From Candidatus Zipacnadia bacterium (lineage in GTDB: Bacteria; Armatimonadota; Zipacnadia; Zipacnadales; UBA5352): a DNA stretch of 64,000 bases. Below the pieces are notes generated by a model, which worked only from the letters and a program-made list of their open reading frames with translations, was not told where the DNA came from and did not search any database. A program made the position numbers and the translations under genes. Where the stretch lies: the NCBI GenBank assembly GCA_029820295.1, contig JALGVA010000001.1, positions 51,476-115,475 on the forward strand, in the 5' to 3' direction. Below, piece by piece: positions 9,390-53,931 of the stretch. Each line of letters begins with the position of its first letter. Positions within the stretch are counted from its first letter, which is position 1.

Positions 9390-9392
9390 GGG

Positions 9393-12215: not shown

Positions 12216-12285
12216 CGTCTTCGCCCCTTGACTTCGGTTTCAGGTCACGGGCAGGTCATGCTGCGCTCCGTGGCTTCCGCCGCCA

Positions 12286-13527
12286 TCACTCGCCCGCCTG
12301 CTCGGCGGCGACCTGCGCGTCCATGACGGCCGCCAGGTCGTCGAGCGCCGACTGCACATCCTGACGCCCGGTGAAGACGCGGAAGAGCATCTGCTGGGCG
12401 GCCAGCTCGATCGGCTCCCAGTCCATCAGCGGGATGAACTTGCCGTCGGGGATGATGTCCACGAAGATGCGCCAGTGCGGATCATCCTGGAAGAAGTCCG
12501 ACTGCGCCACCGCGCGCTTCTCCGGCACCATACCCAGCTCGCAGAACGCCTGGCGGTAGCGGTCCTGGTAGGCGAACTCCACGAACGCCAGCGCCAGCTC
12601 GCGCTCGGCGCAGTACTCCGGCATGACCAGGTGATCGGTGATGACCTGCGTGACGCGCCTGGGCTCAAAGGGCGCGCGGTCCGGGGCCATCGGCAGTGGC
12701 GCGACGGCCCAGGCCAGGTCGGGGTTGCTGGCCGCCGCGTCGGCGATGAGCCACGGCCCGTTGGCGTGCATCGCCACCTTGCCCTCGATGAAGTAGCGAC
12801 GGGTCTCCTTGCGCGACCACGAGGTCGGCTCCGGCTGGGTCACGTGATGGCGTCGGGCCAGGTCGCGATAGAACTTGAGGCTCGCCACGCCGATGGGCGA
12901 GTTCACCGCCGCCCGCCCGTCCTCGCCGAAGAACTCGCCGCCCGCGCTCCAGAAGAAGAAGTACCAGTTGTCGGTGCTCTCATAGGTGGGCTCGACCGGG
13001 ATGCCCAGGCCGTAGGGGCTGTCCCACCGGTGCAGCCTCTGCGCGCAGGTCAACAGCTCATCCCAGTCGCCCGGCGGGCCGCTCAGCCCCGCTTGCTCGA
13101 ACAGGTCGGTGCGGTAGAACAGCGCCTTGGTCGAGGTGGCCCACACCAGCCCCCAGTTGTGCCCGCGGTACCGGGCCTTGTTGAGCAGCACCTCGAAGAA
13201 CTGGTCCGTGAACTCGGCCGGCAGGTCGTCCACGTAGGGCACCAGCCCGTCGGCGAACTCAGTGAGCCACATATCCGGGACGACGACCAGGTCCGGGCCC
13301 TCGCCCGCCTCCAGCCACCCCGCGATGCTGTCGTGGGCCGCGTCCCACTCGCCGAACTCGAAGGCCACGCTGTCGCCGGGATGCGCCTGCTGGAAGTCGG
13401 CGATGAGTCGGTCGTAGAACTCGCGCTCCCCGGGCATGTGGTAGCTCCACGCCTGGAAGGTGATCTCGGCGGCGTGGCAGCCCGGCGCAATCAGCAGCAG
13501 GGCTGTCGCGATGGCGAGGCGCTTCAT
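12286..13527 (-). CDS. extracellular solute-binding protein (ABC-type sugar-binding protein family 1-like), probable lipoprotein
   Basis: MKRLAIATALLLIAPGC (lipobox-like A-P-G-C); overall pattern of family-1 sugar-binding proteins. ATG overlaps the Fkp stop (ATGA at 13524-13527); GGGAGGAG RBS. No permease or ATPase genes anywhere in the window. Confidence 0.75.
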   Translation of the reverse strand: MKRLAIATALLLIAPGCHAAEITFQAWSYHMPGEREFYDRLIADFQQAHPGDSVAFEFGEWDAAHDSIAGWLEAGEGPDLVVVPDMWLTEFADGLVPYVDDLPAEFTDQFFEVLLNKARYRGHNWGLVWATSTKALFYRTDLFEQAGLSGPPGDWDELLTCAQRLHRWDSPYGLGIPVEPTYESTDNWYFFFWSAGGEFFGEDGRAAVNSPIGVASLKFYRDLARRHHVTQPEPTSWSRKETRRYFIEGKVAMHANGPWLIADAAASNPDLAWAVAPLPMAPDRAPFEPRRVTQVITDHLVMPEYCAERELALAFVEFAYQDRYRQAFCELGMVPEKRAVAQSDFFQDDPHWRIFVDIIPDGKFIPLMDWEPIELAAQQMLFRVFTGRQDVQSALDDLAAVMDAQVAAEQAGE

Positions 13528-16500
13528 CGTGTTCTCCTCCCTCTCTCGAACGCAGTGTCGGGGCCGTCGTCGCAGGGGCCGACCTGCAATCCCCCGTGGG
13601 ACACCTCGAAGTCATACACCCGTGCCCCGGTGCCGGCGGTGAGCTGGCTCAGGCGTTGCCGCAGCGAGTCCACGCAGTCGGCCTTCGCGATGAGCAGGAC
13701 GAAGCCGCCGCCACCGGCGCCCGCGGCCTTGGCACCCACCACGTGGGGCTCGACGTCCGCCAGCAGCTCGTCAATCCACGGCGTGGTGCAGTGCGGGTCA
13801 AGGATCTTCTGCAGCTCCCAGTGCATCCACATCTGCCACCCCACTTCGTCCAGGTCGCCGGCCAACAGGGCGTCGCGCATGCTCACGGCGATCCGCTGCA
13901 TCTCGCGCACGCTGTGCACGATGCGGCTGTCCCGCGACAGGTAGCGGCCCATCACCGTGCGCAGGATGTTCCGGGCCAGCCGCTTCTGTCCCGTGTCCAG
14001 CAGCACACACCGCTCCTCCAAGGCCCTGATCACTTCGGGGGCGAGTGGCAGCCTCTCCACCTCGAGGGCCAACGGGTCTCTGGGATCGGAGCGGATCAGC
14101 TTGGCGCCGCCCACGACGCCGCCAACCTGGTCCTGCCAGCCGCCGCCCGCAGACAGGAGTTGCTCCAGGTAGAGCACCCGCGTGAAGATGGTCTGCTCGT
14201 CGGGCTCGGCCTCCGTGAGCCGGGCCAGGCACCCCAGCGTGGCCGCGGCCAGGATGCTGCTCGCGCCCACGCCCGAGCCTCGCGGCACCCGGCTCTCGGT
14301 CACGAGTTCGAAGCCGCCGCCCAGCTCGCGCAGTCGGTCCTGCAGCGATCCGCGGGCACCCTCGGGTACGATCTCCCACGCGACGAAGGCCGCCTTGTGC
14401 AGCCCCAGTGGCCCGGCGGGATCGTCGCAGTCGGCCAGCTCCTGCATCTCGCGTATCTCGGCCGCGAAGTCGCCATCAACCGACGTGAGGCGCAGGACCG
14501 GCTCGGCCAGACGCCTGCCCCACGCCCGCAGCGGCGGCTCGCCGAGCAGGTTCACGGCCACGTTGAGCACCGTGCCCGGGCGTTCGAGGCTGTGCGGGGG
14601 CGTGTCCGACCACCCACCCGCGAAATCCGCTCTGACCGGACAGGAGGCCTGCACCCACTGTCCTCGTCTGACTCTGATCGCCAGACGGCGTGCGGCGCGC
14701 GGCAGTTGTGAGCCGATGGCCTCATGAACGCACGCGAATGCCTGCTCGACAAGGCGGTCCGCAACATCGCCGGGGGCATCCGCCTCTGCTTCCTCCACCA
14801 GGTCGATGCCGATGGCCGCGGAGTCCTCCACCAGATCGGCGGCCATCTTGAGCAGCCGCGCGCGATGGAGCAGATCCTCCGAGCCGCCCGCGAGAGTCAA
14901 CAGATGTTTCAGCACGGCCTTCGCCAGCGGTGTGCCGCGGACGCGTCCGAACAGCACCCGTGCGTCCACGTCACTCCGCGCGGCCTCCTCGAAGCGCAGG
15001 CATTCAAGCAGCGCGAGACGCTCGCCACGGCGCTCCCGCATGGCGGCGAGGTCCACCGTCTCCAGCGCCTCCGCCATCGAGATGCGGGGCGCGCTCAGCC
15101 ACGCCTCGCGCCCCCGCGCGTCGGCGTCCGAAGCTCCGCAGAGCCAGCCCGCCAACTGCCATGAGCGGCCGCGCCGGCCGATGGGGTGGAGCCGCGCGGT
15201 CCACAGGCTCCGCTCTCCCGGGCCCTCCTCCGGCCAGATGGCCTCGCTCGGAACACCTCTGCGCTCCAGCCAGCCGCCGAGCGCTTCACCGAGGAAGCGG
15301 GCTTCCTTCGGGTTGTCGTCAACGCCGAAGACCAGCGTCACTTCGCGTGGCTGCGCAAGCACGCCATCCTCAGCGTACCTGACCGGCAGTGCGCAGGCGA
15401 CTACGCCCTCGGGCACCACCAGCTCGGCGCGCTCGGAGTCCACGCCGCCCACGATCGATCCCGCCCCGATCCGGAAGGGCGCCCCAAGGTGGCAGCCCTG
15501 CACCAGGCTCCCGGCCCCGACCGTGCCGGGAGCAGTGATGATCGTCTCATGCAGACAGGCGCCCTCCTCGACGACACATTCATCACCGCGACCCGCGACG
15601 TAGCTGTCGAGCGTGCCTGAGAAGCCGTGCAGCCTGCCGAACTCCGACCTTGTGGTCACGGTGGCGAGGTACTGACGCGTGTTCCCGATATGCGTGAACA
15701 GCGCCGGCTCGGCACACTGCACGTGGAAGGGGACATCACGGCGCTCCCGGAGGGCGCACCAGATGGCGTCGCGGGCGTCGTAGCCGCCCTCAGCGGGCGG
15801 ACCGACATCCCGCATGTACCGCTCACGCGTTGCCTCCGGCGGCAGTGCGGGCAGGATGTCCCGGTAGAGGTCCACGCGCAGGTCGGCCACGCTCTCCGCG
15901 CCGAGCGGGCGCGCAGAGATCGCCGGCCCGCCGGGCTCCACGCCGACACCGGCCATCTCCAGCAGGGCCTCCAGCCCCAGGCGGTCGAGCTTGAGCAGCC
16001 CGGTGTCAACGTGCGCGCGTCCGTCCTCGGTCAGACCATCGGCCGCGCGCAGCTCCTCGAGCGTTGGCTTCTGCAGGTAGGCCCTCACATCCGGGCACCC
16101 GCGGTCGGCGACGTAGACCCCATGTCCGGTCGCCTCGATGGCGTCTACCGACATCGAGACGCCGACCACGCCCGGCAGCGCCCAGTCGATCTCCCGAGGA
16201 TCGAAGGTGAGCGCCACGTCGCCCGACGAGAGCACCAGCCCGCTGTCGAATTGTGACGGCAGCCCGGCCAGCCCCAGGAACAGGATGTCGAAGAGCGTCG
16301 CCACCGAGCCGTCCGCCAGCGTCGTCGGCAGCATCGCGAAGACCTTACCCAGGGCCGCGCTGTGGGGAAGGCGCCGACTGTCGCCCCCGGCGTGGATCAG
16401 GAGCACGCGCAGGCCGGCGAACAGGTGCTCCGGCCGTTCCACGCCGCCCCCGCCGTCACCGATGCTCGCGAGTTCACGAGCGATCTCCCGGAGCACATGC

Positions 16501-16778
16501 AGTGTGGCGCCGCCGGTCCCCACGCGCCGCCCCTGAGGGTCGGCGTAGACGCGCACGCGGGTCGCGGCCGGGAAGACCCCGCGCTCCTCCCGCTCGGACA
16601 GCTCAGTGCGGAAGACCGACGCCTGCCCCTCAGTCCTGGCGGTCAGGATGCAGTAGTCCCAGCGCGGGGCATTGGGCGACCTCAGCGCCTCCCGGTAGGC
16701 GCGCTGGTTGTGCTCCACGGCCTCCGCCAGCCGTCGCAGGCGCTCAGCACCGTCGATGGGTCCGGGCGGCCGGTCCAT
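13524..16778 (-). CDS. fkp: bifunctional L-fucokinase / fucose-1-phosphate guanylyltransferase (Fkp-like)
   Basis: 1084 aa. The N-terminal region shows a GTGGAT-type nucleotidyltransferase glycine motif (RRVGTGGATLHVLREI) as in fucose-1-P guanylyltransferase. The C-terminal GHMP-kinase ATP motif VPRGSGVGASSILAAATLG is present. GAGGTGA RBS; stop of the upstream gene lies 10 nt before the ATG. Confidence 0.7.
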   Translation of the reverse strand: MDRPPGPIDGAERLRRLAEAVEHNQRAYREALRSPNAPRWDYCILTARTEGQASVFRTELSEREERGVFPAATRVRVYADPQGRRVGTGGATLHVLREIARELASIGDGGGGVERPEHLFAGLRVLLIHAGGDSRRLPHSAALGKVFAMLPTTLADGSVATLFDILFLGLAGLPSQFDSGLVLSSGDVALTFDPREIDWALPGVVGVSMSVDAIEATGHGVYVADRGCPDVRAYLQKPTLEELRAADGLTEDGRAHVDTGLLKLDRLGLEALLEMAGVGVEPGGPAISARPLGAESVADLRVDLYRDILPALPPEATRERYMRDVGPPAEGGYDARDAIWCALRERRDVPFHVQCAEPALFTHIGNTRQYLATVTTRSEFGRLHGFSGTLDSYVAGRGDECVVEEGACLHETIITAPGTVGAGSLVQGCHLGAPFRIGAGSIVGGVDSERAELVVPEGVVACALPVRYAEDGVLAQPREVTLVFGVDDNPKEARFLGEALGGWLERRGVPSEAIWPEEGPGERSLWTARLHPIGRRGRSWQLAGWLCGASDADARGREAWLSAPRISMAEALETVDLAAMRERRGERLALLECLRFEEAARSDVDARVLFGRVRGTPLAKAVLKHLLTLAGGSEDLLHRARLLKMAADLVEDSAAIGIDLVEEAEADAPGDVADRLVEQAFACVHEAIGSQLPRAARRLAIRVRRGQWVQASCPVRADFAGGWSDTPPHSLERPGTVLNVAVNLLGEPPLRAWGRRLAEPVLRLTSVDGDFAAEIREMQELADCDDPAGPLGLHKAAFVAWEIVPEGARGSLQDRLRELGGGFELVTESRVPRGSGVGASSILAAATLGCLARLTEAEPDEQTIFTRVLYLEQLLSAGGGWQDQVGGVVGGAKLIRSDPRDPLALEVERLPLAPEVIRALEERCVLLDTGQKRLARNILRTVMGRYLSRDSRIVHSVREMQRIAVSMRDALLAGDLDEVGWQMWMHWELQKILDPHCTTPWIDELLADVEPHVVGAKAAGAGGGGFVLLIAKADCVDSLRQRLSQLTAGTGARVYDFEVSHGGLQVGPCDDGPDTAFERGRRTR

Positions 16779-16787
16779 CGGGTCACC

Positions 16788-18383
16788 TCACGGGCCGTCC
16801 TCGTGCTCGGAATGGTCGGCCTGCGGCTCCTCGCGGGCGGCGGCCGGCCCGATGCCCACCGGCCGCGGCGGGCCGGACCACCAGCGCTTCAGCGCCCGCC
16901 ACCAGCGCGGCAGAACCAGCCGCCTGAAGCCGATCAGGCTCATGCGCAGCAGCAGCGGGGCGTGTCGGCGGTTGATGATCTTCGATTCGCCTGCGGTGCG
17001 GGCACGGTAGTGCACGGGGATGTCGAGGATGTCCAGGCCCAGGTGCGCGGCGCCGAACAGCAGATCGAAGTCACCGAAGGGGTCGAAGTCGCCGAAGTGC
17101 GAACGATTGGCCGCGATGCGCCGGTAGTCCTCGCGCCGCAGCGCCTTCGTCCCGCACAGAGTATCGCCGACGTAGCGGTCCAGCAGCCACGAGAACAGCA
17201 CACTGAAGAACTTGTTGCCGATGAGGTTGGGCAGACGCATGGCGTCCGTCTCCATCGGGTAGACCAGGCGCGAGCCGTTGGCGAACTCGGCCTTCCCGCT
17301 CGCGATGGCCTCGAAGAACCGGGGCAGGTCCTCGGGCGGCACGGTGAGGTCGGCGTCGAGGATCATGAGCACGTCTCCCTCGGCGGCGTCAAACCCCAGG
17401 CGCACGGCGTGGCCCTTGCCCTGCGGCAGCATCTTCCCGGAGCGCTGCGACGCCCCGATCGCGGCATCCTGCTCCGCCACTTCGGGCGGCAGTTGGAGGA
17501 TCAGCTTGATGTCCTTCTCGCCCTGGTACTTCGCCACCATGCGCTCGATCTCATCGCGCGTCCCGTCGGTCGAGTTGCCGTCCACGAACAGAATCTCGGT
17601 GTGGCTGCCCATGACCGGGATGCGCTCCACGCAGGCGGCCACGTTCTCGCGCTCATTGCGCGTGGGCACCAGCACAGTACATGTCAGGTCCTCAGCCTGC
17701 AGTTCGGCTCCCGTCGGCCGAGCGACCACAAGCTGGGTAATGCACAGATGGCGCAACGGTCTGAACGCCCGCGCGAGGCCATTCAGCAAGGGCGTGATGA
17801 GCGGCACGTGCTTGGGCATGATGAGCGAGTAGGACTCGTCGATCACATCGAAATCCGCGAGCCGCAGGAGCTGGCGCATAAGCTGGATAGGCACCCAGTT
17901 CTGGAACTGGTGGGGCATCTTCAGGCCGAGACGTTCCGCGGCCCGCAGCGGCAGCTCGTAGAGGAAGTTGTAGGTGACGATGACCACGCGCGTGTGGGGG
18001 GCGCACACGCCGCGCACCTGCCCGAGCGCCGCCTGTACATCCTCCAGGTGGCCGAGAAGATGCACCAGCAGCACCACGTCGAAGTCACCGTCCTCAAGCT
18101 TGAGATCCTCGGCATCGCCGACCTCGAAGCGCAGGTGGGGGTACTTCTCCCTGGCGATCTCGATCATCCTGGGACTGAGGTCCACTCCGACACCGTGCGA
18201 TGGCTCCACGGCGGCGAGGGTGTCGCCGGTCGCGCAGCCGATCTCGAGCACCCTCTGCCCCCGAGGCACAACCCGGCGCAGCTCCTCCTGCAGACTGGCG
18301 TGGTACAGCCAGTTCCGACGCTTCCAGCGCTGGAGGTCGGGAGCCAGCCGATCGAAGTGCTCGCGTACGGCGTCCTTTTTCAT
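16788..18383 (-). CDS. fusion protein: class I SAM-dependent methyltransferase (N-terminal) + family 2 glycosyltransferase (C-terminal)
   Basis: Methyltransferase motif I VLEIGCATGDTLAAV; GT2 signatures VLVPTRNERENV...FVDGNSTDGT...ILDADL. Start placed at MKKDAVREHF (18383); the ORF-track start 18461 adds 26 residues. Confidence 0.7.
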   Translation of the reverse strand: MKKDAVREHFDRLAPDLQRWKRRNWLYHASLQEELRRVVPRGQRVLEIGCATGDTLAAVEPSHGVGVDLSPRMIEIAREKYPHLRFEVGDAEDLKLEDGDFDVVLLVHLLGHLEDVQAALGQVRGVCAPHTRVVIVTYNFLYELPLRAAERLGLKMPHQFQNWVPIQLMRQLLRLADFDVIDESYSLIMPKHVPLITPLLNGLARAFRPLRHLCITQLVVARPTGAELQAEDLTCTVLVPTRNERENVAACVERIPVMGSHTEILFVDGNSTDGTRDEIERMVAKYQGEKDIKLILQLPPEVAEQDAAIGASQRSGKMLPQGKGHAVRLGFDAAEGDVLMILDADLTVPPEDLPRFFEAIASGKAEFANGSRLVYPMETDAMRLPNLIGNKFFSVLFSWLLDRYVGDTLCGTKALRREDYRRIAANRSHFGDFDPFGDFDLLFGAAHLGLDILDIPVHYRARTAGESKIINRRHAPLLLRMSLIGFRRLVLPRWWRALKRWWSGPPRPVGIGPAAAREEPQADHSEHEDGP

Positions 18384-45244: not shown

Positions 45245-47095
45245 ATGCGCTTGCCGCAGGCGGGTGTCGTCTGGACGTCTCCGAACAGGTGCGGTCCGCT
45301 CGACGACGTGGAGATCGTCTTTGTCTGGGACGGGCTGGACGGCCAGCCGGTGACCTTCCAGCTCACCGACGCCGCGCACCAGACGTACTTCGAGCGCACC
45401 GTCACCGCGCAGAAGGGCCAGGCCGAGCTGGTGGTCAAGCCCGGCGGCAGGCCCGGCGTGCACCTCATCACCGTGCGCACACCGCGGCCGGGCGAGGCCC
45501 CCTACACGCGCTACGGCAGCTTCCGCGTTCACGCACACACCACGGTCACGACGGACACGGGCGAGATCGATGAGCTGCTGGCGCTGCTCGAGGAAGGGCT
45601 GCGTCAGTGCATCGACGTCACCCAGGTCAACGGCAAGCTCCGCACCTACTACAAGGCCGCCGACAACAGCCGCCAGAATCTGGCCTATCCGGCGTTCGCC
45701 ATCGACGGCCTGCGCTACTTCCTCCAGGACGTCAAGTCCATGTTCGAGGCCATCTACGACAACCAGTGGCCCGATGGCCGCCTGCCCGACCATGTCTACG
45801 GCGACAACTACCCCTGCGCCCGGACGCCGCGCAAGCTGCGCACCTGCATGGCCGACCTTGAGATCGGCATGGCGTCCACGCTGTGCAAGGGGTGGCAGGC
45901 GCATGGCGACGACGAGTGGCTGCGGCGGATGCTCCCCGCCGTCGAGGCCGGCCTGGAGTTCGCCCTGACCGACCCGATGATGTACGATGAGACCCACGGC
46001 GCCCTCAAGCGCCCCCACACCCTCGACGAGTGGGACATCGGCTTCACCGAGAGCGGCGAGAACGCCTACACCGACGAGACCTGCAAGTTCGTGCTCATGC
46101 AGGGCGACACGTCGCAGCTCTATCTGGCGTGCACGCTGCTGGCGCAGGCCTTCGAGGCGATCGGGGATCCGGTGCGCGCCGCGCACTACCGCCTGCTGCA
46201 GACGCACTACTTCCACCACGGCAACGAGCTGTTCTGGGACGGCGTGAAGTACCGCCACCACATCCATCTCGACCCCTTCGACCACGGCGACTTCGACGAG
46301 GACGAGCAACTGACCATGAGCAACGCGGCGGCCATCACGCGCGGCTTTGCGGACCACGCCCGGGCCGTCTCGATCATCGATGAGTACGTCCGCCGTTGGG
46401 AGGAGACCGGCGACGCCTTCCCGTGGTGGAGCCTGCAGCCGGGCTACCCGGACCGGCTGGGCTACTTCCGGCGCAACTCGGGCGCGTGGACGCGCGGCGA
46501 GGGTGAGTACGCCAATGGCGGCCTCTTCCCCTGGGTCGGCGGCGAGCTGTGTCGCGGGGCGCTGCAGCACGGCCGGGAGGAGCTGGCGTACCGCCTGCTG
46601 CGCGATGTTCACGCCGTGCTCAGGCGCGATCATGGCGCGCTGTTCACCTGGTACAACCTCGACGGCAGCGCGGCCATCAATGCCCCGCACCATCAGACCA
46701 ACTACGACCCGTGGGGCTTCGGCCCGTGGGCCGCGGCGGTCGTCGAGGAGCTGGCCGGGATCAAGTCGCAGGGCAAGCTGTTCGAGCGCGTCCTGTGCGC
46801 GCCTCGCTGGCCGGCGGCGGGCGTGCGCACCGCCGCCGCTACCGCGCACTTCCCGTCCTCGGACGCCTACTTCTCCTACCGCTACCGGCGTTCGGACGAC
46901 CGCATCGGGCTGCATTTCACCGGCACCGGCCGGCACGTGTGCTTCCGCATCCTCCTGCCCGGATGGCGGGAATGCAGCGGCGTAACGCTCAACGGCGAAG
47001 ACGCGCAGTTCGCGCTCGAGAGCGTCGAGGAGTCGGTCTACGTGGTGGTCGAGTCGGAGATCGGCGGCGTCGGCGAGCTGGCGGTCGTGCGCTGA
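45245..47095 (+). CDS. cytoplasmic (alpha/alpha)6 six-hairpin glycosidase-like protein
   Basis: ATG 45245 with GAGGAGG RBS (7-nt spacer); Trp/aromatic-rich helical-hairpin pattern (WSLQPGYPDRLGYF...GEGEYANGGLFPWVGGELCRGALQHG) typical of GH63/GH78/GDE-like six-hairpin folds; no signal peptide. Confidence 0.45.
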   Translation: MRLPQAGVVWTSPNRCGPLDDVEIVFVWDGLDGQPVTFQLTDAAHQTYFERTVTAQKGQAELVVKPGGRPGVHLITVRTPRPGEAPYTRYGSFRVHAHTTVTTDTGEIDELLALLEEGLRQCIDVTQVNGKLRTYYKAADNSRQNLAYPAFAIDGLRYFLQDVKSMFEAIYDNQWPDGRLPDHVYGDNYPCARTPRKLRTCMADLEIGMASTLCKGWQAHGDDEWLRRMLPAVEAGLEFALTDPMMYDETHGALKRPHTLDEWDIGFTESGENAYTDETCKFVLMQGDTSQLYLACTLLAQAFEAIGDPVRAAHYRLLQTHYFHHGNELFWDGVKYRHHIHLDPFDHGDFDEDEQLTMSNAAAITRGFADHARAVSIIDEYVRRWEETGDAFPWWSLQPGYPDRLGYFRRNSGAWTRGEGEYANGGLFPWVGGELCRGALQHGREELAYRLLRDVHAVLRRDHGALFTWYNLDGSAAINAPHHQTNYDPWGFGPWAAAVVEELAGIKSQGKLFERVLCAPRWPAAGVRTAAATAHFPSSDAYFSYRYRRSDDRIGLHFTGTGRHVCFRILLPGWRECSGVTLNGEDAQFALESVEESVYVVVESEIGGVGELAVVR

Positions 47096-48873
47096 GGGTG
47101 CGCCCGCTCGACCTGGAAGCCGGCCCGGGCGAGGAATCCGGGGAGATTGCGCACCATCATCCGGTCCTTCTCGCGCCCCTCCTCGGACAGCTCATCCCAG
47201 CCCACCAGATCGGGATGAGTCTTGCGCCGGTCGTCGCGCACCTCGCCCCAGCGGTAGCCCTGCCCCCGGCGCTCGGCGCACCAGCGCTCGTGCTCCATGC
47301 GCGCCATGCCCTCGATCTCGTCGGCGCTGAACTCGAAGCGCTCCGCCTCCCAGTCGGTCAGCGGCGCGATGCGGTAGCCGAAGGCCGCCAGCCGCTCGGC
47401 CAGGCAGTCGGCCTGCGCCCGGTTGGCCTCGCGGTAGTGCTCGTCCAGGTCCTCCCACCGGTGCAGCGCCCCGCGCGAACCCAGCTCCGCTCCCCTGGCC
47501 AGCTCGTGGCGCAGGTAGTCCTCGTGCATCGCCTGCGCCAGGGTCTCGTTCACCCCGCGCAGCAGCAGCTCCGGACGGCAGGTCTCGTCCAGCAGTGGGA
47601 AGGCCACAATGCCCTCACACTCGGACAGCAGTGTCTGCAGGCCGCCGCGTTCGGCCACGCGCGCCACGATGGTCGCGTCGGCGCTCCCCCCCAGCCGCCG
47701 ACCCAGTGACAGCGCCGACGTGATGCTCAGCGCGTCCGCCGACAGGCAGACGAACGCCGCCGTCACCGCGCATCGCCCGTCGCCGTCCACCAGGAAGTCG
47801 GCGGTCTCGAACTCAGCCGAACGCACGTCCATCTCGTGGGCCACCAGGTCGCAGATGTCGGCGAGGTGCGGGTAGCGCGCGAGCAGCGAGCGCACCCGCG
47901 CCTGCGCCATCCGGTCCACGACGCCGATGCGCAGGCGACCCCCCGCGCCCGCCTCACGCCACTCGCGCGCGGCCTGCAGCACCAGCGCCTCGCCCAGGTC
48001 GCCCATGCCCACGATCAGCACGTGGGCGGGCCGGTCATCGGGCGCCGCGACGGGGTGCGCGGCCAGCAGCGCGCGGGCGCCGCTCTCATACACGTTGAAA
48101 AACTCCAGGCGGAAGGCCTCGGCGTGCGGCCCGGCCAGGTGCTGCTCGCGCAGCAGCCGGCACAGGGCGAGTTCGACGATGTGCGCGTAGCAGCCCAGCA
48201 CGCCCGACCGGCGCCTGACCGCCGCCGCCCGCGCGCGCACGGCGATCTCGGCGTTCACGCCATCATCGCCACATACCGCGAACAGGTAGGAGGCCGAGGC
48301 GACGTTCGCGCCATTCAGCGCTTCCGGCATCGAGGCGTCGCCCGTCAGCACCGTGACGCCCTGCTCGCGGCAGGCCGCCACGTTCGGGTTGGCCGGGTCG
48401 CTCTCGATGGCGAGCACCCGGTGGCCCTGCGCGCGGAAGCCCAGCGCCAGCCGCAAGCCCTTGTCCCCGAGCCCGCAGATGACCACATGGCCGCGGGCGA
48501 AGCGGGCGGTGAGCCGCGCGAGCTGCTCGGAGAACAGGAGCGCCAGGCCCTGCAGGGCCGTGTAGCCGGTGACCACGGGAGCGAGGAAGCGCGCCAGCTC
48601 GAACTCCCAGATCGTCCCGGGCGACGGCTGCCCGCCCTCGAGCACGAAGAGCTGCAGCGCGCGGTAGAGCACATCCCAGCCCGACCGCGGCTCGCCCAGA
48701 GCGGCGAAGTGCCGGGCGTAGCCGACAAAGCCGATGACCAGCGCCATCAGCCACGCCGCGCCGATGATCGGCCACTGATGCTCGCGCAGCCAGCGCCGGG
48801 CCCGCACGTGCCAGCGACTCGTGCCGGACCCCGGGGCGGTACTCCGCGTCGTCTCAGCCCCCGTGGCTGCCAT
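47038..48873 (-). CDS. membrane protein with two RCK/TrkA-N (NAD-binding Rossmann) domains and a C-terminal ryanodine-receptor (RyR) domain
   Basis: Start MAATGAETT... at 48873 (GAGGAGAGGG upstream; alternative Met 48900). TM segments WPIIGAAWLMALVIGFVGYA and FLAPVVTGYTALQGLALLF. Two GxGxxG Rossmann starts VVICGLGDKG and VLIVGMGDLG. RyR motif MEHERWCAERRGQGYRWGEVRDDRRKTHPDLVGWDELSEEGREKDRMMVRNLPGFLARAGFQV. Confidence 0.6.
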   Translation of the reverse strand: MAATGAETTRSTAPGSGTSRWHVRARRWLREHQWPIIGAAWLMALVIGFVGYARHFAALGEPRSGWDVLYRALQLFVLEGGQPSPGTIWEFELARFLAPVVTGYTALQGLALLFSEQLARLTARFARGHVVICGLGDKGLRLALGFRAQGHRVLAIESDPANPNVAACREQGVTVLTGDASMPEALNGANVASASYLFAVCGDDGVNAEIAVRARAAAVRRRSGVLGCYAHIVELALCRLLREQHLAGPHAEAFRLEFFNVYESGARALLAAHPVAAPDDRPAHVLIVGMGDLGEALVLQAAREWREAGAGGRLRIGVVDRMAQARVRSLLARYPHLADICDLVAHEMDVRSAEFETADFLVDGDGRCAVTAAFVCLSADALSITSALSLGRRLGGSADATIVARVAERGGLQTLLSECEGIVAFPLLDETCRPELLLRGVNETLAQAMHEDYLRHELARGAELGSRGALHRWEDLDEHYREANRAQADCLAERLAAFGYRIAPLTDWEAERFEFSADEIEGMARMEHERWCAERRGQGYRWGEVRDDRRKTHPDLVGWDELSEEGREKDRMMVRNLPGFLARAGFQVERAHPQRTTASSPTPPISDSTTT

Positions 48874-49063
48874 CCCAGGCCCTCTCCTCTGACCCGCCAT
48901 CTCGCGTGGCTGCAGGCTTCTCCCCGGCCGACCGTGCACCTCCAACGCCCGTCGTGCGCGGGGCACGATCCGCGCGCCGAGGCGTCCCTGCTCGAAGGCC
49001 CCGTCGGCCATCGCGTGGAAAGGGCCCGCCACTGCGTGCAGGCCGACTGAGGAGGTCGGGGCG

Positions 49064-52000
49064 ATGGCCGACACCGGGCACAGGATGGTCGTGGTGACGG
49101 GCGACGTCACGATGGACTGGAATCTGGCGCGACTGGCCAGCGATGACGACACCCGCTTCCGCTGGGACCCGAACGATGTCGCACGCGTCTCCCTGTCGCG
49201 GGGCGGCGCCGCCATGCTCGCCGATGTCATCGCGGCCCTGTGCTCCCTGCCCGGTGACGAGAGCGCGCTGGCCTGCTCGGCCACGGCGATCGGACCGCAG
49301 ACCGACCGGCCGCTGCCCGGCGGTGAGGCCTACGAGCGCTACCACCACTCCTACGCCCTGTGGACGCCCCACCGCAGGCGCGCCGGTGACCGGGGCGGGC
49401 CATGGGTGTGGCGGGTCAGGCAGTACCTCGGCCTCGACCGGGCGCGCGCGGGCGCGGCGCCGCCCGGGCTCGAGGCCGAGCCCGGGCCGGGCGCGGCCGA
49501 CCTCATCGTGCTCGACGACGCGAACCTGGGTTTCCGCGACGACCCGGCCGTGTGGCCCCCATCGATCACCGACGGCACCCACGCCGGCTGGACGGTCATC
49601 AAGATGGCCGAGCCGGTGGCGCACGGCGGCCTGTGGGAGCGGCTCGTCGGGAGCTGCGCCGAGCGCCTCGTGGCCGTGACCACCGTCGGCGACCTGCGCC
49701 GCCAGGCGGTGCACATCAGCCGCGGACTGTCGTGGGAGCGCACCGCCCAGGACCTGTTCTGGGAGCTGACCAACAACCCCGATGTCAACTCGCTGTCGGC
49801 ATGCGCCCACACCGTGGTCTCGCTCGGGCCGGCGGGTGCGCTGGTGCTTTCGCGCGCCGGGGGCTCGCCCGCCGACGGCGACCAGGGCTGGCGTTGCCGG
49901 CTCATCTTCGATCGCATGGTGACCGAGGGTGGCTGGGAGGGCGACTACCCGGGAGGCATGATCGGTTACACGGTGTCGCTGACCGCCGGGATCGTGGCCC
50001 AGATCCTGCGCGACCCGTCCGACCTGGAGGCCGGCGTCCGCTCGGGCATCGCGGCCATGCGCGCCCTGCACGTGGCAGGCCTGGGGGAGCAGGAGCTGGG
50101 GGGCGGCGACGGCGAGCAGCCGGAGCTGTCCCCGCTCGCCTTCCCGACCGAGATGATCGCGCGCACCGCGGTCGCGCCCTGTGAGTACCTCGACGCGACC
50201 GACGTGCAGAACCCGGCGCGTTACCTGACCTCGTCCGCGCCCGAGGCCGCGGGACGTCGCCGGGCCGCCTTCTGGACGATCCTCGACGGCGTCTGCGAGG
50301 GCGACGAGCGCCGGGCCGCCGAGACGCTGCCGGGCGAGTTCGACAGTCCGCTGGCTGTGAAGGCGGCGGAGGTGGCGCGCTGGGGCGTCGCCAGTCGGCT
50401 GGCCGGCGTACCGATTTGCCGTATCGGCGCCCTGACCACGGTGGACCGCCGCGAGACCGAGGGCTACCGCCGGGTGCAGAACCTGATCGAGCAATACTGG
50501 CGCGGGTCCGACAGCAAGCCGCTGGCCATCGCGGTCTTCGGCCCGCCCGGGGCGGGGAAGTCCTTCGGGGTCAAGCAGGTGGTCAAGTCGGTCCGCAGGC
50601 TGATGGGTGACGAGGATGACGAGGGCGAGCTGGAGTTCAACCTGTCGCAGTTCGCCGACCCGCACGATCTGGTCGCGGCGCTGCATCGCGTGCGCGACAT
50701 CGGCCTCAGCGGCGCCATGCCGCTGGTCTTCTGGGATGAGTTCGACAGCGAGGGCCTGAGGTGGCTGCAGCACTTCCTGGCGCCCATCCAGGACGGCGCC
50801 TTCCGCGACGCCGCCAGCGAACACCACGTGGGGCGCGCCATCTTCGTGTTCGCCGGCGGCACCGCCTCGAGCATGGCCGAGTTCGACCGCAGTCAGGCGT
50901 CCGACGAGGCGGTGCACGCGCATTTCATCAGCATGAAAGGCCCCGACTTCGTCAGCCGCCTCAAGGGCTACGTGGACATCATGGGCCCGAACCGCCACGG
51001 CGAGGACGACCGGCACTTCCTGCTGCGCCGCGCGATCCTGCTGCGCTCGCTGCTCGAGCGCAACGCCGGCACGCTGATTCGCGCCGACGGCGACGGCGAC
51101 ACGCTGCACATCGACGAGGGCGTGCTGCGCGCCTTCCTGCACGTCTCTGCGTACAAGCATGGCGTGCGCTCGATGGAGGCCATCATCGCCATGAGCAGCC
51201 TGGCGGGCAAGGACCACTTCGAGCGCTCCTGCCTGCCCGACGTCAGCCAGCTCGACCTGCACGTGGACGGCGATGAGTTCATGGCGCTCGTCCAGCTCCT
51301 CGACTTCGACCTGGCGGGCTCGGACCCGGATGCCCCGCGCCGGGCGCTCCTGGAGCGACTGGCCGCGGCCGTGCACGACAACTACCGGGGCGCCATGGCC
51401 GACTACAGTGACCGACCGGAGTGGGCCCAGGCCGGCTACCAGGCGCTGCCCGAGGAGGCGAAGGAGCAGAACCGCGACTTCGTGCGCCACATCGCCCCCA
51501 AGCTGGCCAGCATCGGCTACCAGATGGTGCCCGCGCGCAGCGACGATCCCCCCTTCGGCTTCCCGGGGCAGCACCTGGACTTCCTCGCTGAGGTCGAGCA
51601 TGAGCGCTGGCTCGCCCTCAAGCTCGAACAGGGCTACCGCTACGGCCCGGAGCGGGATGAGGCGCAGCGCATCAACCCGAACATGATCCCATGGCACGCG
51701 CTGTCGGACGAGGAGAAACGGCGGCGCTACGGCGACAGGGCCGACCGGGTCGGCCCCGGGCCGATGACCGAGGAGCAGAAGGACTGGGATCGTGACCTGA
51801 TCCGAGCCATCCCCAACGTGCTCGCCACCGCGGGCTACACGCTGGTGCACGTGCGCCACATCAGTCCCGAAGAGGAGCGCCGGGCCGGCGTGACGCCGCA
51901 CGTCCGCGTCGGCGTGACCGGCCACCGCTTCCTGGCCGAGGTGCCCAGGCTCCGGGCCGCGATCGAGCGCGCGCTGGACATCGTGCGCGCGCTGCATCCT

Positions 52001-52450
52001 GATCGCGAGCTGGCGGTGATCTCGCCACTGGCGGAGGGCGCCGACCGGCTGGTGGCCCAGGCGGCGCTGGCGGGCGGCGCCCGGCTGATCGCGCCGCTGC
52101 CCCTGCCGGAGGAGGACTACCTCACCGACTTCGCGACCGACCGGTCGAAGCAGGAGTTCCGCGCGCTGCTCGAACAGGCGACGTCGGTCCCCGTGCTGCC
52201 TCAGACCGCGAGCCGCGATGAGGCCTACGAGCAGGCCGGGCAATACGTGCTCGACGAGTCCGACGTGCTGATCGCGATCTGGGACGGCGCGCCCTCCCGG
52301 GGGCAGGGCGGCACCGCCGAGATCGTCGAGCGGGCGCTGAGCCGCGGCATGCCGGTGCTGCACATCAAGGCCGGCAACCGCGAGCCCGGAGCGACCACGC
52401 CCACCTCCCTCGGGGCGCAGCAGGGCAAGCTGGTGGCCCACAACCTGTGA
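49064..52450 (+). CDS. 1128-aa multidomain protein: N-terminal Rossmann-like region + AAA+ ATPase + RyR domain + C-terminal SLOG (DprA/LOG-like) domain
   Basis: ATG 49064 with GGAGGT RBS (7-nt spacer). Walker A IAVFGPPGAGKSFG and Walker B LVFWDEFDSEG. RyR motif EVEHERWLALKLEQGYRYGPERDEAQRINPNMIPWHALSDEEKRRRYGD...IRAIPNVLATAGYTLV. C-terminal SLOG-like blocks VRVGVTGHRF, ISPLAEGADRLVAQAALAGGARLI, LIAIWDGAPSRGQGGTAEIVERALSRGMPV. Confidence 0.6.
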   Translation: MADTGHRMVVVTGDVTMDWNLARLASDDDTRFRWDPNDVARVSLSRGGAAMLADVIAALCSLPGDESALACSATAIGPQTDRPLPGGEAYERYHHSYALWTPHRRRAGDRGGPWVWRVRQYLGLDRARAGAAPPGLEAEPGPGAADLIVLDDANLGFRDDPAVWPPSITDGTHAGWTVIKMAEPVAHGGLWERLVGSCAERLVAVTTVGDLRRQAVHISRGLSWERTAQDLFWELTNNPDVNSLSACAHTVVSLGPAGALVLSRAGGSPADGDQGWRCRLIFDRMVTEGGWEGDYPGGMIGYTVSLTAGIVAQILRDPSDLEAGVRSGIAAMRALHVAGLGEQELGGGDGEQPELSPLAFPTEMIARTAVAPCEYLDATDVQNPARYLTSSAPEAAGRRRAAFWTILDGVCEGDERRAAETLPGEFDSPLAVKAAEVARWGVASRLAGVPICRIGALTTVDRRETEGYRRVQNLIEQYWRGSDSKPLAIAVFGPPGAGKSFGVKQVVKSVRRLMGDEDDEGELEFNLSQFADPHDLVAALHRVRDIGLSGAMPLVFWDEFDSEGLRWLQHFLAPIQDGAFRDAASEHHVGRAIFVFAGGTASSMAEFDRSQASDEAVHAHFISMKGPDFVSRLKGYVDIMGPNRHGEDDRHFLLRRAILLRSLLERNAGTLIRADGDGDTLHIDEGVLRAFLHVSAYKHGVRSMEAIIAMSSLAGKDHFERSCLPDVSQLDLHVDGDEFMALVQLLDFDLAGSDPDAPRRALLERLAAAVHDNYRGAMADYSDRPEWAQAGYQALPEEAKEQNRDFVRHIAPKLASIGYQMVPARSDDPPFGFPGQHLDFLAEVEHERWLALKLEQGYRYGPERDEAQRINPNMIPWHALSDEEKRRRYGDRADRVGPGPMTEEQKDWDRDLIRAIPNVLATAGYTLVHVRHISPEEERRAGVTPHVRVGVTGHRFLAEVPRLRAAIERALDIVRALHPDRELAVISPLAEGADRLVAQAALAGGARLIAPLPLPEEDYLTDFATDRSKQEFRALLEQATSVPVLPQTASRDEAYEQAGQYVLDESDVLIAIWDGAPSRGQGGTAEIVERALSRGMPVLHIKAGNREPGATTPTSLGAQQGKLVAHNL

Positions 52451-52505
52451 CCGGAGGCGCGAGCGCAGCACACACCCCGGGCGCCCGGCGATTGGAGTGA
52501 GCGGC

Positions 52506-53931
52506 ATGCGCACCGTTGCGCTGCTGGCGGCGCTGGCGGCGACGTCGGTGGCGCAGGCGGAGACCATCGCGCAGTACCTGGCCACACCGGCAACCGCGCC
52601 GGAGCGCGTGGAGGACCTGGGAGCGGGCGACCCCTGGGTGATTGAGGGCGGCATGCACGACGGCCATGCTTCGCTGCGCTGGCCCGCGCTGGCGCTCCCC
52701 GATACCGACCCACAGTACACCCTCACCTACCACGTCTGCGTCGAGCGCGCGGCCCATCCCGACATGCTCGAGGTGTGGCCGCGCGAGGGCGGCCTGGGAG
52801 TCGGGATGATCGCCCCCACCGGCTGCAACTTCTACGCCGGCGGCTTCATCGACCTGCTCATCGACGGCGCCTCCATCGGCGGCAACCAGGCGACCATCGA
52901 GCGGCTCACCTGGCCCGCCGCGACCGGCTACCGGCTCACCTGGCAGATCCCCGGCGCAACCGTTGCCCTGACCTTCGTCGGCGCCGATGGCGACGACCAC
53001 CTGACGCTACACGGCGCCGTGCAGTCCGAGGAGATCATCAACACGGTCGAGGTGCGGCTCCGCTGCTTCCCGTCGAGCTTCACCGAGCCGCGTGAACGCT
53101 TCGTCGCCACCGCCGGCCGGGAGCTTGAGGCCGGTGCGCGCGTCGTCCTGCCCCCGGATGAGTGCTGGGCGCTGTTCGCGGATCGGCACTTCGACGAGGC
53201 GACGCTGCCCGCGCAGTCGCGCGGCCCGTGCGCGCTGCTGTTCGAGCCGATGCAGATGTCGCGGGCGATGCTGGATGTCGGCGCCTGCCAGATCGAGGCG
53301 CAGTTCGAGCTGATGCCCGGTCAGACGAGCTTCGACCTGGCGCTGTGGGAGTTCCCCGACCTGGCGAACGCCGCGGCGCTCGCGGCCATGCGGCAGGTGA
53401 CCGCCGACCTCGAGCCCGCCGGCGCGCAGCAGCAGATGGTCGCTGCGCCGCCGCGCGTGCTGGTGAGCGACGGGCGGCCCGCCGCCCGTGCCCGTCGGCG
53501 AGAAGCTGCGCGACCTGCCGCTGCAGTGGCGCTTCGCGCTCGACCCCGACGACGTGGGGCTGGCCGAGGGATGGTTCGCGACCGACTTCGATGACGCCCG
53601 GTGGGCGACCATCGAGGTCGGCCGGCACTGGGAGCGCCAGGGCTACGAGGGCTTCGACGGCATCGCCTGGTACCGGCTCGCGGTCGAGATTACGGCAGAG
53701 GACGTCGCCGCGCCGCTGCTGCTGGCCTTCGGCGGCGTAGACTCCGATGCCCGGGTGTTCCTGAACGGGCGCGAGGTGGGGCGGCACGAGGGCTGGGACG
53801 AGCCGTTCGCGATCGAGCTGCCGCGGGGCCAGGTGCGCGTGGGCGAGCCCAACCTGATCGCGGTGCGCGTGCGCGACACCGGCGCCGACGGCGGCATCTA
53901 CGGCACCGTCAGCCTCGGCCGGCCCAGGTAG
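52506..53931 (+). pseudogene. secreted protein with C-terminal galactose-binding-like jelly roll; apparent +1 frameshift near 53480-53500 (pseudogene or sequencing error)
   Basis: Signal peptide MRTVALLAALAATSVAQA|E (ATG 52506, GGAG upstream). Frame 0 (52497-53594) degenerates into an Arg-rich tail after ...RVLVSDGRPA. Frame +1 (53488-53931) continues with a well-formed domain (GWFATDFDDARWATIEVGRHWERQGYEGFDGIAWYRLAV...VFLNGREVGRHEG) homologous to the C-terminus of the 35185-37605 gene. Confidence 0.45.

Follow-up and report, generated by a model that had tools for sequence, protein, structure and literature searches.

Two ryanodine-receptor-domain proteins encoded side by side in Candidatus Zipacnadia and their possible place in NAD+-derived signalling

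Described nucleotide-signal systems and the RyR-domain pair

Nucleotide second-messenger immunity, as seen in Thoeris, CBASS and type III CRISPR systems, is defined by a set of sensor domains, namely SLOG, Macro, SAVED and CARF. Of the domains considered here, SLOG and SLATT were reportedly defined by Burroughs et al. 2015 (NAR). In this work we describe a gene pair from a 64-kb stretch of a Candidatus Zipacnadia genome of the phylum Armatimonadota (contig JALGVA010000001.1, positions 51,476 to 115,475; hereafter the window), both products of which carry a domain of the ryanodine-receptor (RyR) family. The first, BigA, combines a PfkB-like domain, an AAA+ module, a helical region, a tandem RyR and a SLOG domain in that order, whereas the second, MemB, is made up of two transmembrane (TM) helices, an MthK-like linker, a TrkA_N/RCK domain, a second Rossmann-like region and a tandem RyR. 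We put at roughly one in two the probability that this pair is a reduced version of a widespread and undescribed signalling or immune network based on NAD+-derived (ADP-ribose-type) molecules.

In a recent survey of Thoeris systems, the SLOG domain of ThsA is given as the receptor of 3' cyclic ADP-ribose (cADPR), the SLATT proteins of type VII as responding to canonical cADPR, the type X effector as an 'ion channel' whose signal is not known, and 'SLOG and 4TM' proteins as candidate, untested effectors (10.64898/2025.12.03.692087). DUF4062 is a TIR-like NADase that yields ADP-ribose (ADPR) and nicotinamide and acts in Avs-type and other defence systems as well as in human TEP1 (10.64898/2026.05.01.722283; 10.64898/2026.09.04.749371). 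Binding of cADPR isomers by RyR domains was shown in 2026, in phage counter-defence proteins only, which either bind 2', 3' or canonical cADPR at nanomolar affinity or cleave cADPR (PMC13232231; 10.64898/2026.06.04.730250). The ligand residues are H75, W78, H100 and D117 in RyDEP (PMC13232231) and H129/W132, K147/H154 and K170/D171 in RyR Tad (10.64898/2026.06.04.730250), with a like spacing in the two, whereby a His is followed by Trp at +3, His at +25 and Asp at +42. A preliminary description of the locus, prepared from its sequence alone, still listed the bacterial RyR domains as lacking an assigned function, a statement that these reports render outdated.

As in Thoeris, relatives of BigA and MemB adjoin TIR genes, and the type VII and X effectors are membrane proteins (SLATT and 'ion channel'; 10.64898/2025.12.03.692087). 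However, no TIR (ThsB) gene is present in the window, RyR is unreported as a host-side receptor, the 2TM-RCK-RyR and PfkB-AAA+-RyR-SLOG architectures are not among the Ths effectors described in that text, and many relatives of BigA and MemB pair with DUF4062-STAND proteins instead of TIR. An equivalence of TIR-MemB pairs with type X Thoeris and its 'ion channel' effector was considered; the TIR protein encoded beside one MemB relative (L082) has no BLAST similarity to the type X TIRs. The phage RyDEP and RyR Tad proteins have the PF02026 domain in common with our pair, and MemB shares their H-x-x-W, His(+25), Lys-Asp(+41/42) pattern; but they are small phage anti-defence homodimers, whereas BigA and MemB are host-encoded, carry both RyR repeats on one chain, with the ligand site retained in repeat 2 only, and fuse this tandem to an AAA+ ATPase or a membrane module, respectively.

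Like MthK/Kch and TrkA, MemB has two TM helices followed by an RCK Rossmann domain with a Pfam TrkA_N match; unlike MthK/Kch, it is devoid of TVGYG and of an Ion_trans_2 match, its second Rossmann region is not recognised as RCK, and it has an additional C-terminal RyR. The C-terminus of BigA adopts the predicted fold of YpsA, DprA/ShosA and LOG, but is set apart from YpsA, DprA and LOG by sequence scores below the Pfam thresholds and by motifs of its own; further, other genomes have the same SLOG joined to a 4TM module that matches SLATT_1/DUF4231 weakly, as in the SLOG-SLATT fusions. DUF4062-containing STAND NADases (NIR/Swarozyc/Avs-type) neighbour relatives of both proteins, including the closest relative, but are absent from the window. 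Published DUF4062 systems have the NADase as their effector, which works by depleting NAD+, and no downstream ADPR-sensing layer is described (10.64898/2026.05.01.722283; 10.64898/2026.09.04.749371). Finally, the eukaryotic cation channels linked to ADPR or cADPR, viz., TRPM2, with its SLOG-like MHR1/2, and the R12-containing RyR channels, differ from MemB in having unrelated transmembrane parts.

The preliminary description held that a RyR-AAA+-SLOG protein paired with a RyR/RCK membrane protein was not a described system, and we likewise found no description of it in the searchable literature; an earlier mention in Burroughs et al. 2015 is possible. Neither a host RyR-domain receptor nor the BigA architecture is mentioned in the 2026 DUF4062 papers, the available text of the Thoeris survey or Kaur et al. 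2020, the last of which mentions neither RyR nor DUF4062. In the literature searched, no paper combined the term 'RyR domain' with SLOG, and a broader search that took in TrkA, AAA, NACHT, TIR domain and SLATT gave no 'RyR domain' paper among its top-ranked results.

Domain anatomy of BigA and MemB

The preliminary description had both open reading frames (ORFs) and the 190 bp between their starts exactly right (Table 1), and all the motifs it quoted are present, including VVVTGDV at residues 9-15 of BigA and LFVLEGGQP in MemB. Its assignments of RyR to both proteins, of AAA+ and a C-terminal SLOG to BigA, and its remark that MemB is without a GYG filter all withstood the searches detailed below. 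Of the two Rossmann/RCK domains it proposed for MemB only the first is borne out by profile searches, and of its two suggestions for the N-terminus of BigA, SLOG- or pfkB-like, the latter prevailed. Its reading of BigA as a single large ORF also stands: the protein is identical to the database protein P0001, without splitting by frameshifts, and is conserved as such. The MemB ORF can be extended to position 49284; the start in public data is the ATG at 48873, giving 611 aa.

RyR is detected in both proteins above the PF02026 gathering cut-off of 27.4 bits, with 40.1 bits in BigA and 57.6 bits (E 1.5e-15) in MemB. The BigA family RyR profile recovers the RyR2 structure (E 5e-25) as well as 3NRT, a RyR-like protein of Bacteroides (2.5e-10), and that of the MemB family the R12 structures of RyR1-3 (E 4e-31). 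Each RyR region can be resolved into two repeats, which match each other in hhalign comparisons with a probability of 98.5% (E 2.9e-15) in MemB and 99.1% (E 1.4e-18; region 762-932) in BigA; moreover, the repeats of the two proteins are closely related to one another (99.9%, E 4e-34). Both regions are accordingly classified, from these comparisons, as predicted R12-like single-chain tandems of two repeats; the pseudo-symmetric two-repeat domain is likewise a tandem in animal R12, whereas phage and Bacteroides proteins build it as a homodimer.

When the ligand residues of the phage proteins are mapped by spacing only, repeat 2 of MemB displays the full cADPR-contact pattern, with H528, W531 (+3), R546 (+18), H553 (+25) and K569-D570 (+41/42). 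The corresponding positions in repeat 2 of BigA are H846 (of the HERW motif at 846-849), W849, R864, N871 and, beyond an insert of approximately 22 residues, W908-D909. Since repeat 1 is degenerate in both proteins, with HxxY in the first motif and NR replacing DR, each tandem probably has one functional ligand site, located in repeat 2.

The AAA+ module of BigA is marked by motifs that are invariant across the family: Walker A (GPPGxGKS), Walker B (hhhWDEFD), FVFAGGT and DFVSRL. The window protein has GPPGAGKS at 493-500 and FWDEFD at 556-561 (Walker B LVFWDEFD) and by itself yields weak AAA_16/AAA_22 matches; across the family, Pfam AAA is found in 11/12 members (best E 3e-6) and AAA_16 in 12/12, and weak PDB profile matches point to the classical-clade proteins Mpa, Rpt, Vps4 and Cdc48. 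The Walker A and B, sensor-1-like and Arg-finger-like motifs, together with the profile, identify BigA as a predicted AAA+ ATPase.

For the C-terminal domain of BigA the nearest structural neighbours lie within the SLOG superfamily, with YpsA the closest. Its motifs are GVTGHR (950-955), AEGADR (990-995) and GGTAEIV (1082-1088), represented in the family as GVTGHR, SPLAEGADR and GGT. The sequence scores fall short of the curated-family thresholds: the window protein matches YAcAr at E 0.0055, its 16.9 bits lying under the cut-off (28.2), YAcAr, DprA and YpsA match 6/27, 4/27 and 3/27 family members, all below threshold, and the PDB profile comparison with YpsA gives E 0.18. Because the fold matches SLOG but the curated sequence thresholds are not reached, this domain is a new sequence family inside the SLOG fold.

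The fold of the N-terminal domain of BigA is nearest to nucleoside and ribose kinases, and the notion of a second SLOG domain in this region was rejected in favour of the PfkB/ribokinase fold. Two motifs that occupy the places of the sugar-binding motifs, GD..DW and GG, do not vary within the family. In contrast, the NxxE position is not conserved, and the position of the GAGD Asp, placed by family alignment and predicted secondary structure, reads PGGMIG-Y302 (Tyr or His in the family), just ahead of the helix at 302-316. At the sequence level the domain has no PDB profile match to PfkB, and an hhalign comparison with E. coli RbsK, whose sequence was entered by hand, returned nothing. The domain is probably a ribose- or nucleoside-binding, non-catalytic version of the fold.

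In MemB the RCK domain follows directly upon the inner helix and is recovered by Pfam TrkA_N (PF02254; E 1.4e-15) and, with the family profile, by the TrkA structure 4j9u (E 1.8e-16). The family further aligns with residues 98-184 of MthK (the sequence of which was entered by hand), spanning the inner-helix linker and the RCK N-lobe, with an hhalign probability of 92% (E 5e-7). The TM helices are separated by a conserved amphipathic stretch (...DLLYLxLQLFVLESG...), in which Y70, Q74, L75 and F76 are conserved in the family. The second Rossmann-like region has an invariant GxGxxG (G289, G291, G294) and no Pfam TrkA_N match; as a second RCK domain it was set aside, the motif being conserved but profile support absent. 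A K+ channel was also considered for MemB and rejected, as neither a TVGYG filter nor a pore-domain profile match is found.

Searches of the 190 bp between the two genes for sigma-70-like promoters and for terminators gave no match. The hairpin noted in the preliminary description, with the GGAGG of the ribosome-binding site in its loop, does exist, but as a regulatory element it was rejected, with the folding of the region at chance level (z = +0.56; 141/200 shuffles fold equally well or better).

Table 1. Positions of the gene pair and its component features in the window
Feature	Coordinates	Strand	Residues, motif or basis
MemB gene	47038..48873	-	611 aa; ORF list, identity to P0121
MemB RyR repeat 2, canonical	47089..47325	-	Pfam RyR 57.6 bits
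MemB RyR repeat 1, degenerate (HEDY ... ANR)	47326..47556	-	hhalign vs repeat 2
MemB second Rossmann-like region	47614..48027	-	residues ~283-420, VGMGDLG; invariant GxGxxG
MemB RCK/TrkA_N Rossmann domain	48223..48486	-	residues 130-217, GLGDKG; PF02254
MemB TM2, then MthK-like linker (SEQ...)	48532..48588	-	residues ~96-114; hydropathy
MemB re-entrant/pore-helix-like segment WDVLYRALQLFVLEGGQP	48619..48684	-	residues ~64-85; without TVGYG filter
MemB TM1	48712..48774	-	residues ~34-54; Kyte-Doolittle 19-residue window, peak 1.92
Divergent intergenic region	48874..49063	.	190 bp between BigA and MemB starts
Small hairpin, GGAGG in loop, 5' of BigA ATG	49043..49059	+	sequence
BigA gene	49064..52450	+	1128 aa; ORF list, identity to P0001, family alignment
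BigA PfkB/ribokinase-fold domain	49064..50098	+	residues ~1-345; fold test
BigA AAA+ module with helical lid	50471..51343	+	residues ~470-760; invariant columns, Pfam
BigA RyR repeat 1, degenerate (HDNY ... QNR)	51347..51571	+	hhalign vs repeat 2
BigA RyR repeat 2	51572..51859	+	Pfam RyR 40.1 bits
BigA YpsA-like SLOG domain	51860..52447	+	residues 933-1128; fold test

Phyletic spread and gene neighbourhoods

A search with the BigA core (residues 1-780) against 1.84 billion representatives recovered 1,981 clusters at 50% identity (E <= 1e-30), falling into length classes of ~700 aa (no RyR), ~900 aa (RyR) and ~1,100 aa (RyR and SLOG). The hosts include Chloroflexota, Acidobacteriota, Planctomycetota, Armatimonadota, Gemmatimonadota, Clostridia, Cloacimonadota and archaea, with identities of 32-57%, and relatives of MemB are also widespread. 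As neither family has relatives in the IMG/VR viral contigs, BigA and MemB are taken to be host genes, and a phage origin or an anti-defence role was rejected on the same ground. Cultured carriers of BigA include, e.g., Maioricimonas sp. JC845 (L010) and several Clostridium species (L075-L080); in Clostridium magnum DSM 2767 (L075, 9980-12541) a PfkB-AAA-RyR homologue lies between genes for an MCP-signalling-domain protein and a 5-formyltetrahydrofolate cyclo-ligase, with no defence genes nearby.

To survey the context of BigA, we used 80 loci from species-representative genomes, the ORFs of which were clustered all-against-all; partners were detected by tblastn with a small query panel, so that the partner counts are lower bounds. 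MemB is encoded within 5 kb of BigA in 15/80 loci, where it mostly follows BigA or the SLOG gene directly and on the same strand (13/15), in the co-oriented order BigA, (SLOG), MemB with gaps of 0-700 bp. Along with the occurrence of BigA in 7/19 MemB-centred loci (see below), this answers the question, put in the preliminary description, whether homologues of the two genes co-localise in other genomes: they do, with the divergent layout of the window as a minority arrangement.

Some form of SLOG is found in 38/80 BigA loci, and it comes in three guises: fused to BigA, as a separate ORF of ~190 aa directly downstream that starts within ~20 nt of the BigA stop, or as part of a protein of 505-622 aa that consists of SLOG and then four TM helices and matches SLATT_1/DUF4231 weakly. 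Because SLOG occurs fused, separate or on the 4TM protein, BigA and SLOG would be expected to act together, such fusion and fission being a classical type of evidence for joint action. In 8/19 adjacent pairs (L002-L005, L008, L010, L016, L022) the separate SLOG ORF shares the reading frame of BigA, with one stop codon (TAG in 6, TGA in 2) between them. Programmed read-through was considered for these junctions and dropped, 8/19 being not clearly above the expected one-third; they probably reflect recent fission.

Large DUF4062-STAND-WD40/TPR proteins (Pfam DUF4062, E 2e-17) are encoded in 30/80 BigA loci. Of the 42 loci that extend 5 kb or more to each side of BigA, a SLOG gene is seen in 22, a SLATT-type gene in 11, DUF4062 in 17 (20/43 in another count, i.e., 40-48%), TIR in 12 and MemB in 8; TIR or DUF4062 is present in 26/42 and any partner in 32/42. 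The partners are concentrated less than 2 kb from BigA, with counts in successive 2-kb bins of 8, 3, 1 and 2 for TIR and 8, 2, 0 and 0 for SLATT-type genes. The closest relative of the pair (L081; 73% and 70% identity on one 35.7-kb contig) has DUF4062 and STAND-TPR genes between BigA and MemB and three further DUF4062/STAND/WD40 genes after MemB.

The converse view was obtained from four look-ups of MemB homologues on long contigs and 80 loci from a metagenome scan, 19 of the latter having at least 3 kb on both flanks. Among these 19, BigA is found in 7, SLOG in 5, TIR in 8, DUF4062 in 5, TIR or DUF4062 in 12 and any partner in 14. A conserved TIR family immediately adjoins MemB in L089, L092, L093, L097, L103 and L166, and simple TIR-MemB pairs are seen in L082, L092, L097, L103 and L166. 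In L082 a TIR_2 gene (E 1.2e-23) precedes MemB; the encoded protein (8811-9905) has predicted TM segments and an uncharacterised C-terminal domain, and at least six other loci have a member of its family (45-85% identity) next to MemB.

More elaborate arrangements are seen on the other long contigs. L084 runs from TIR to SLATT_1, NACHT, a BigA-like gene and MemB. L085 combines genes for DUF4062-NACHT-WD40, PfkB-AAA without RyR, a separate SLOG, DUF4062-TPR and MemB, followed by integrases and Prim-Pol. In the stretch 2766-5446 of L085, the PfkB-AAA protein is a 692-aa paralogue with the AAA+ core and without RyR, and the next gene encodes a 200-aa SLOG 61% identical to that of the window. The MemB homologue and DUF4062-STAND genes of the same locus (11981-17598) adjoin those for an HTH regulator, two integrases and Prim-Pol, which suggests carriage on an integrative mobile element. 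L086/L087 have the order WD40, BigA, MemB, NUDIX, WD40, DUF4062-NACHT; here the NUDIX hydrolase gene (11737-12198) overlaps the 3' end of the MemB homologue on the opposite strand, and could provide a link to ADP-ribose pyrophosphatase activity.

In the window itself, the pair is flanked by genes for a GH123-like/CBM9 protein, a glycoside hydrolase with a weak MGH1-like match, a 365-aa protein without annotation and a giant protein that contains LamG, so that the carbohydrate-active enzyme island of the preliminary description applies only loosely. The G+C content across the module (~0.71-0.74) is similar to that of the flanks. The closest named relatives of both genes are from Armatimonadota, including the class Candidatus Zipacnadia, and not from the PVC group to which the locus had been attributed. 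Both genes are carried by four near-identical metagenome assemblies, in one of which (62,988-bp contig) BigA is called as two proteins of 494 and 615 aa (P0241/P0242), either a frameshifted pseudogene or an assembly error. The 3' end of MemB overlaps convergently by 58 nt (47038-47095) with the glycoside-hydrolase-like gene at 45245-47095 (plus strand, 616 aa), an overlap also present in the public gene calls (L168). Just 3' of BigA, the ORF at 52497-53594 encodes the 365-aa protein, with a signal-peptide-like N-terminus and without a Pfam match. A minus-strand ORF (48854-52726, 1290 aa) runs antisense to the whole of BigA, and similar antisense ORFs occur in homologous loci; it is a high-GC artefact and not a gene.

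Functional interpretation and its alternatives

Under the reading that we favour, in which the pair belongs to an NAD+-derived signalling or immune network, the TIR or DUF4062-STAND-WD40/TPR sensors of the fuller loci would cleave or cyclise NAD+ when triggered, and the ADPR-type product would be read by the tandem RyR and, where present, also by SLOG. MemB would be the membrane effector, with an MthK-like layout and a C-terminal RyR as its ligand sensor; ligand binding would open or assemble a non-K+-selective pore, leading to collapse of the membrane potential as in abortive infection. In other genomes, the SLOG-SLATT proteins would serve as membrane effectors. BigA would be a soluble ATPase acting as a hub, with three modules that could bind nucleotides or ribose, viz., the PfkB-like domain (probably non-catalytic), RyR and SLOG, and the ligand would control how its AAA+ ring assembles or how active it is; the output of BigA could consist in processing, buffering or amplifying the signal, or else in a second effector activity. 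The window represents a minimal version, a predicted receptor/effector pair with a fused SLOG and without a visible signal generator.

The preliminary description had offered a ligand- or nucleotide-gated signalling module or an abortive-infection-type module, and this proposal is strengthened because TIR, DUF4062-STAND and SLOG-SLATT genes adjoin both families and RyR domains have since 2026 been known to bind cADPR-type signals; the function as such is a prediction. A bolder formulation would have MemB-type proteins as prokaryotic cation channels gated by TIR/NADase-produced ADP-ribose signals via an R12-type RyR, which would make them a bacterial counterpart, and possibly the evolutionary source, of the long-debated cADPR-ryanodine-receptor axis of animals. 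BigA-type proteins would be a new class of signal-driven AAA+ machines with three nucleotide-sensor folds (PfkB-like, RyR and SLOG), and the two together would act downstream of the TIR and NIR-STAND immune sensors as a receptor layer of a new kind; we advance this formulation only tentatively.

Several observations weigh against the favoured reading. Within the 64-kb window, tblastn detected no TIR, DUF4062, STAND, SLATT or NUDIX gene, the flanks are glycoside-hydrolase-like, and the pair may therefore be a remnant. The sole match in PADLOC-DB v2.0.0 (2023) is a weak one to ShosA (E 0.006) on the SLOG region of BigA, with none for MemB. The ligand site of the window BigA may be altered, with N871 in place of the phosphate-contacting His, which most relatives have, and W908 in place of Lys. 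In MemB, residues 1-121 have no Pfam match, including to Ion_trans_2, the comparison with MthK leaves the pore region unaligned, and the filter position varies within the family (LEGGQP, LESGAV, LQSGGV, MECEQP) and lacks a K+ filter. The AAA+ and PfkB assignments carry no clue to the output activity of BigA. Lastly, the neighbourhood counts are raw frequencies with no random-locus baseline, approximately a quarter of the well-flanked BigA loci have no partner at all, and in a divergent clade that includes cultured Clostridium, BigA stands alone among metabolic genes.

Some of these points would also suit a housekeeping sensor of metabolic state, wherein MemB transports or conducts cations under RCK control and BigA is an ATPase, both being tuned at their RCK, RyR, SLOG and PfkB-like sites by ordinary adenine nucleotides or NAD(H)/ADPR and serving ion homeostasis or stress physiology instead of immunity. 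TrkA_N/RCK domains are typical of K+ transport regulation, YpsA, the nearest SLOG structure, is a cell-division regulator (PMC6459960), and both the setting of the window pair, among carbohydrate-active genes with no immune genes nearby, and that of the Clostridium homologues would be accommodated. We regard it as unlikely, given that TIR, DUF4062-STAND and SLATT-type genes are strongly enriched beside both families and fall off with distance (in raw counts), that one MemB homologue adjoins integrases and Prim-Pol, and that the patchy cross-phylum spread, with 40-50% identity between bacterial and archaeal proteins, fits horizontally moving accessory systems. In another alternative, BigA is a self-contained NTP-dependent conflict protein, sensor and effector in one, and MemB an independent effector with the RyR receptor domain in common, the two being brought together by the clustering of genes in defence islands: MemB is missing from ~80% of the BigA loci and BigA from ~60% of the MemB loci, BigA stands alone in Clostridium, and MemB forms two-gene units with TIR only. 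Such independence seems rather improbable to us in light of the immediate, co-oriented, operon-like adjacency of most co-occurring genes, the close kinship of the RyR domains of the two proteins and the retention of the pair in the four near-identical assemblies.

A role in signal quenching or self-protection would cast the host RyR as a cADPR glycosidase or sponge in the manner of phage RyDEP and RyR Tad, ending or buffering NAD-derived signals made by TIR or NIR sensors that are encoded elsewhere, with BigA recycling the products via a PfkB-like kinase that acts on a ribose moiety. Both proteins fill the two catalytic positions of RyDEP, with the HERW His and an Asp at +42, but most of the tested phage homologues with the same residues are non-catalytic (PMC13232231). 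Similarly, the PfkB fold is nearest to nucleoside and ribose kinases but apparently lacks the GAGD catalytic Asp; and while L086/L087 have a NUDIX gene directly next to MemB, the two-gene TIR-MemB operons resemble sensor-effector pairs, and it is difficult to see why a membrane module of the 2TM-RCK kind should carry a quencher. We therefore consider quenching a poor prospect. As for a chance juxtaposition of unrelated genes that share a common small domain, the divergent orientation does mean that the window has no operon, but repeated co-localisation across phyla, seen from the side of either gene, and the retention of the pair in the closest relatives already disfavour this explanation, which we find scarcely credible.

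What is new here is a candidate host-side RyR receptor domain along with an uncharacterised large ATPase family, in the setting of nucleotide-signal immunity and signalling. The family of ~2,000 clusters and the locus suggest that hosts use RyR as a receptor, attached to a channel-like membrane protein in one case and a large ATPase in the other, with genetic links to TIR and DUF4062-NADase sensors. If the favoured network reading is correct, these proteins would be a new receptor/effector class downstream of NAD+-cleaving immune sensors, and the DUF4062/NIR NADases, so far known as NAD+ depleters, would gain a possible signalling role. The TIR and 2TM-RCK-RyR pair would then offer a simple bacterial model for a long-standing problem of calcium signalling, namely whether ADPR-type ligands have a direct effect on the R12 domain of ryanodine receptors, and by what means.

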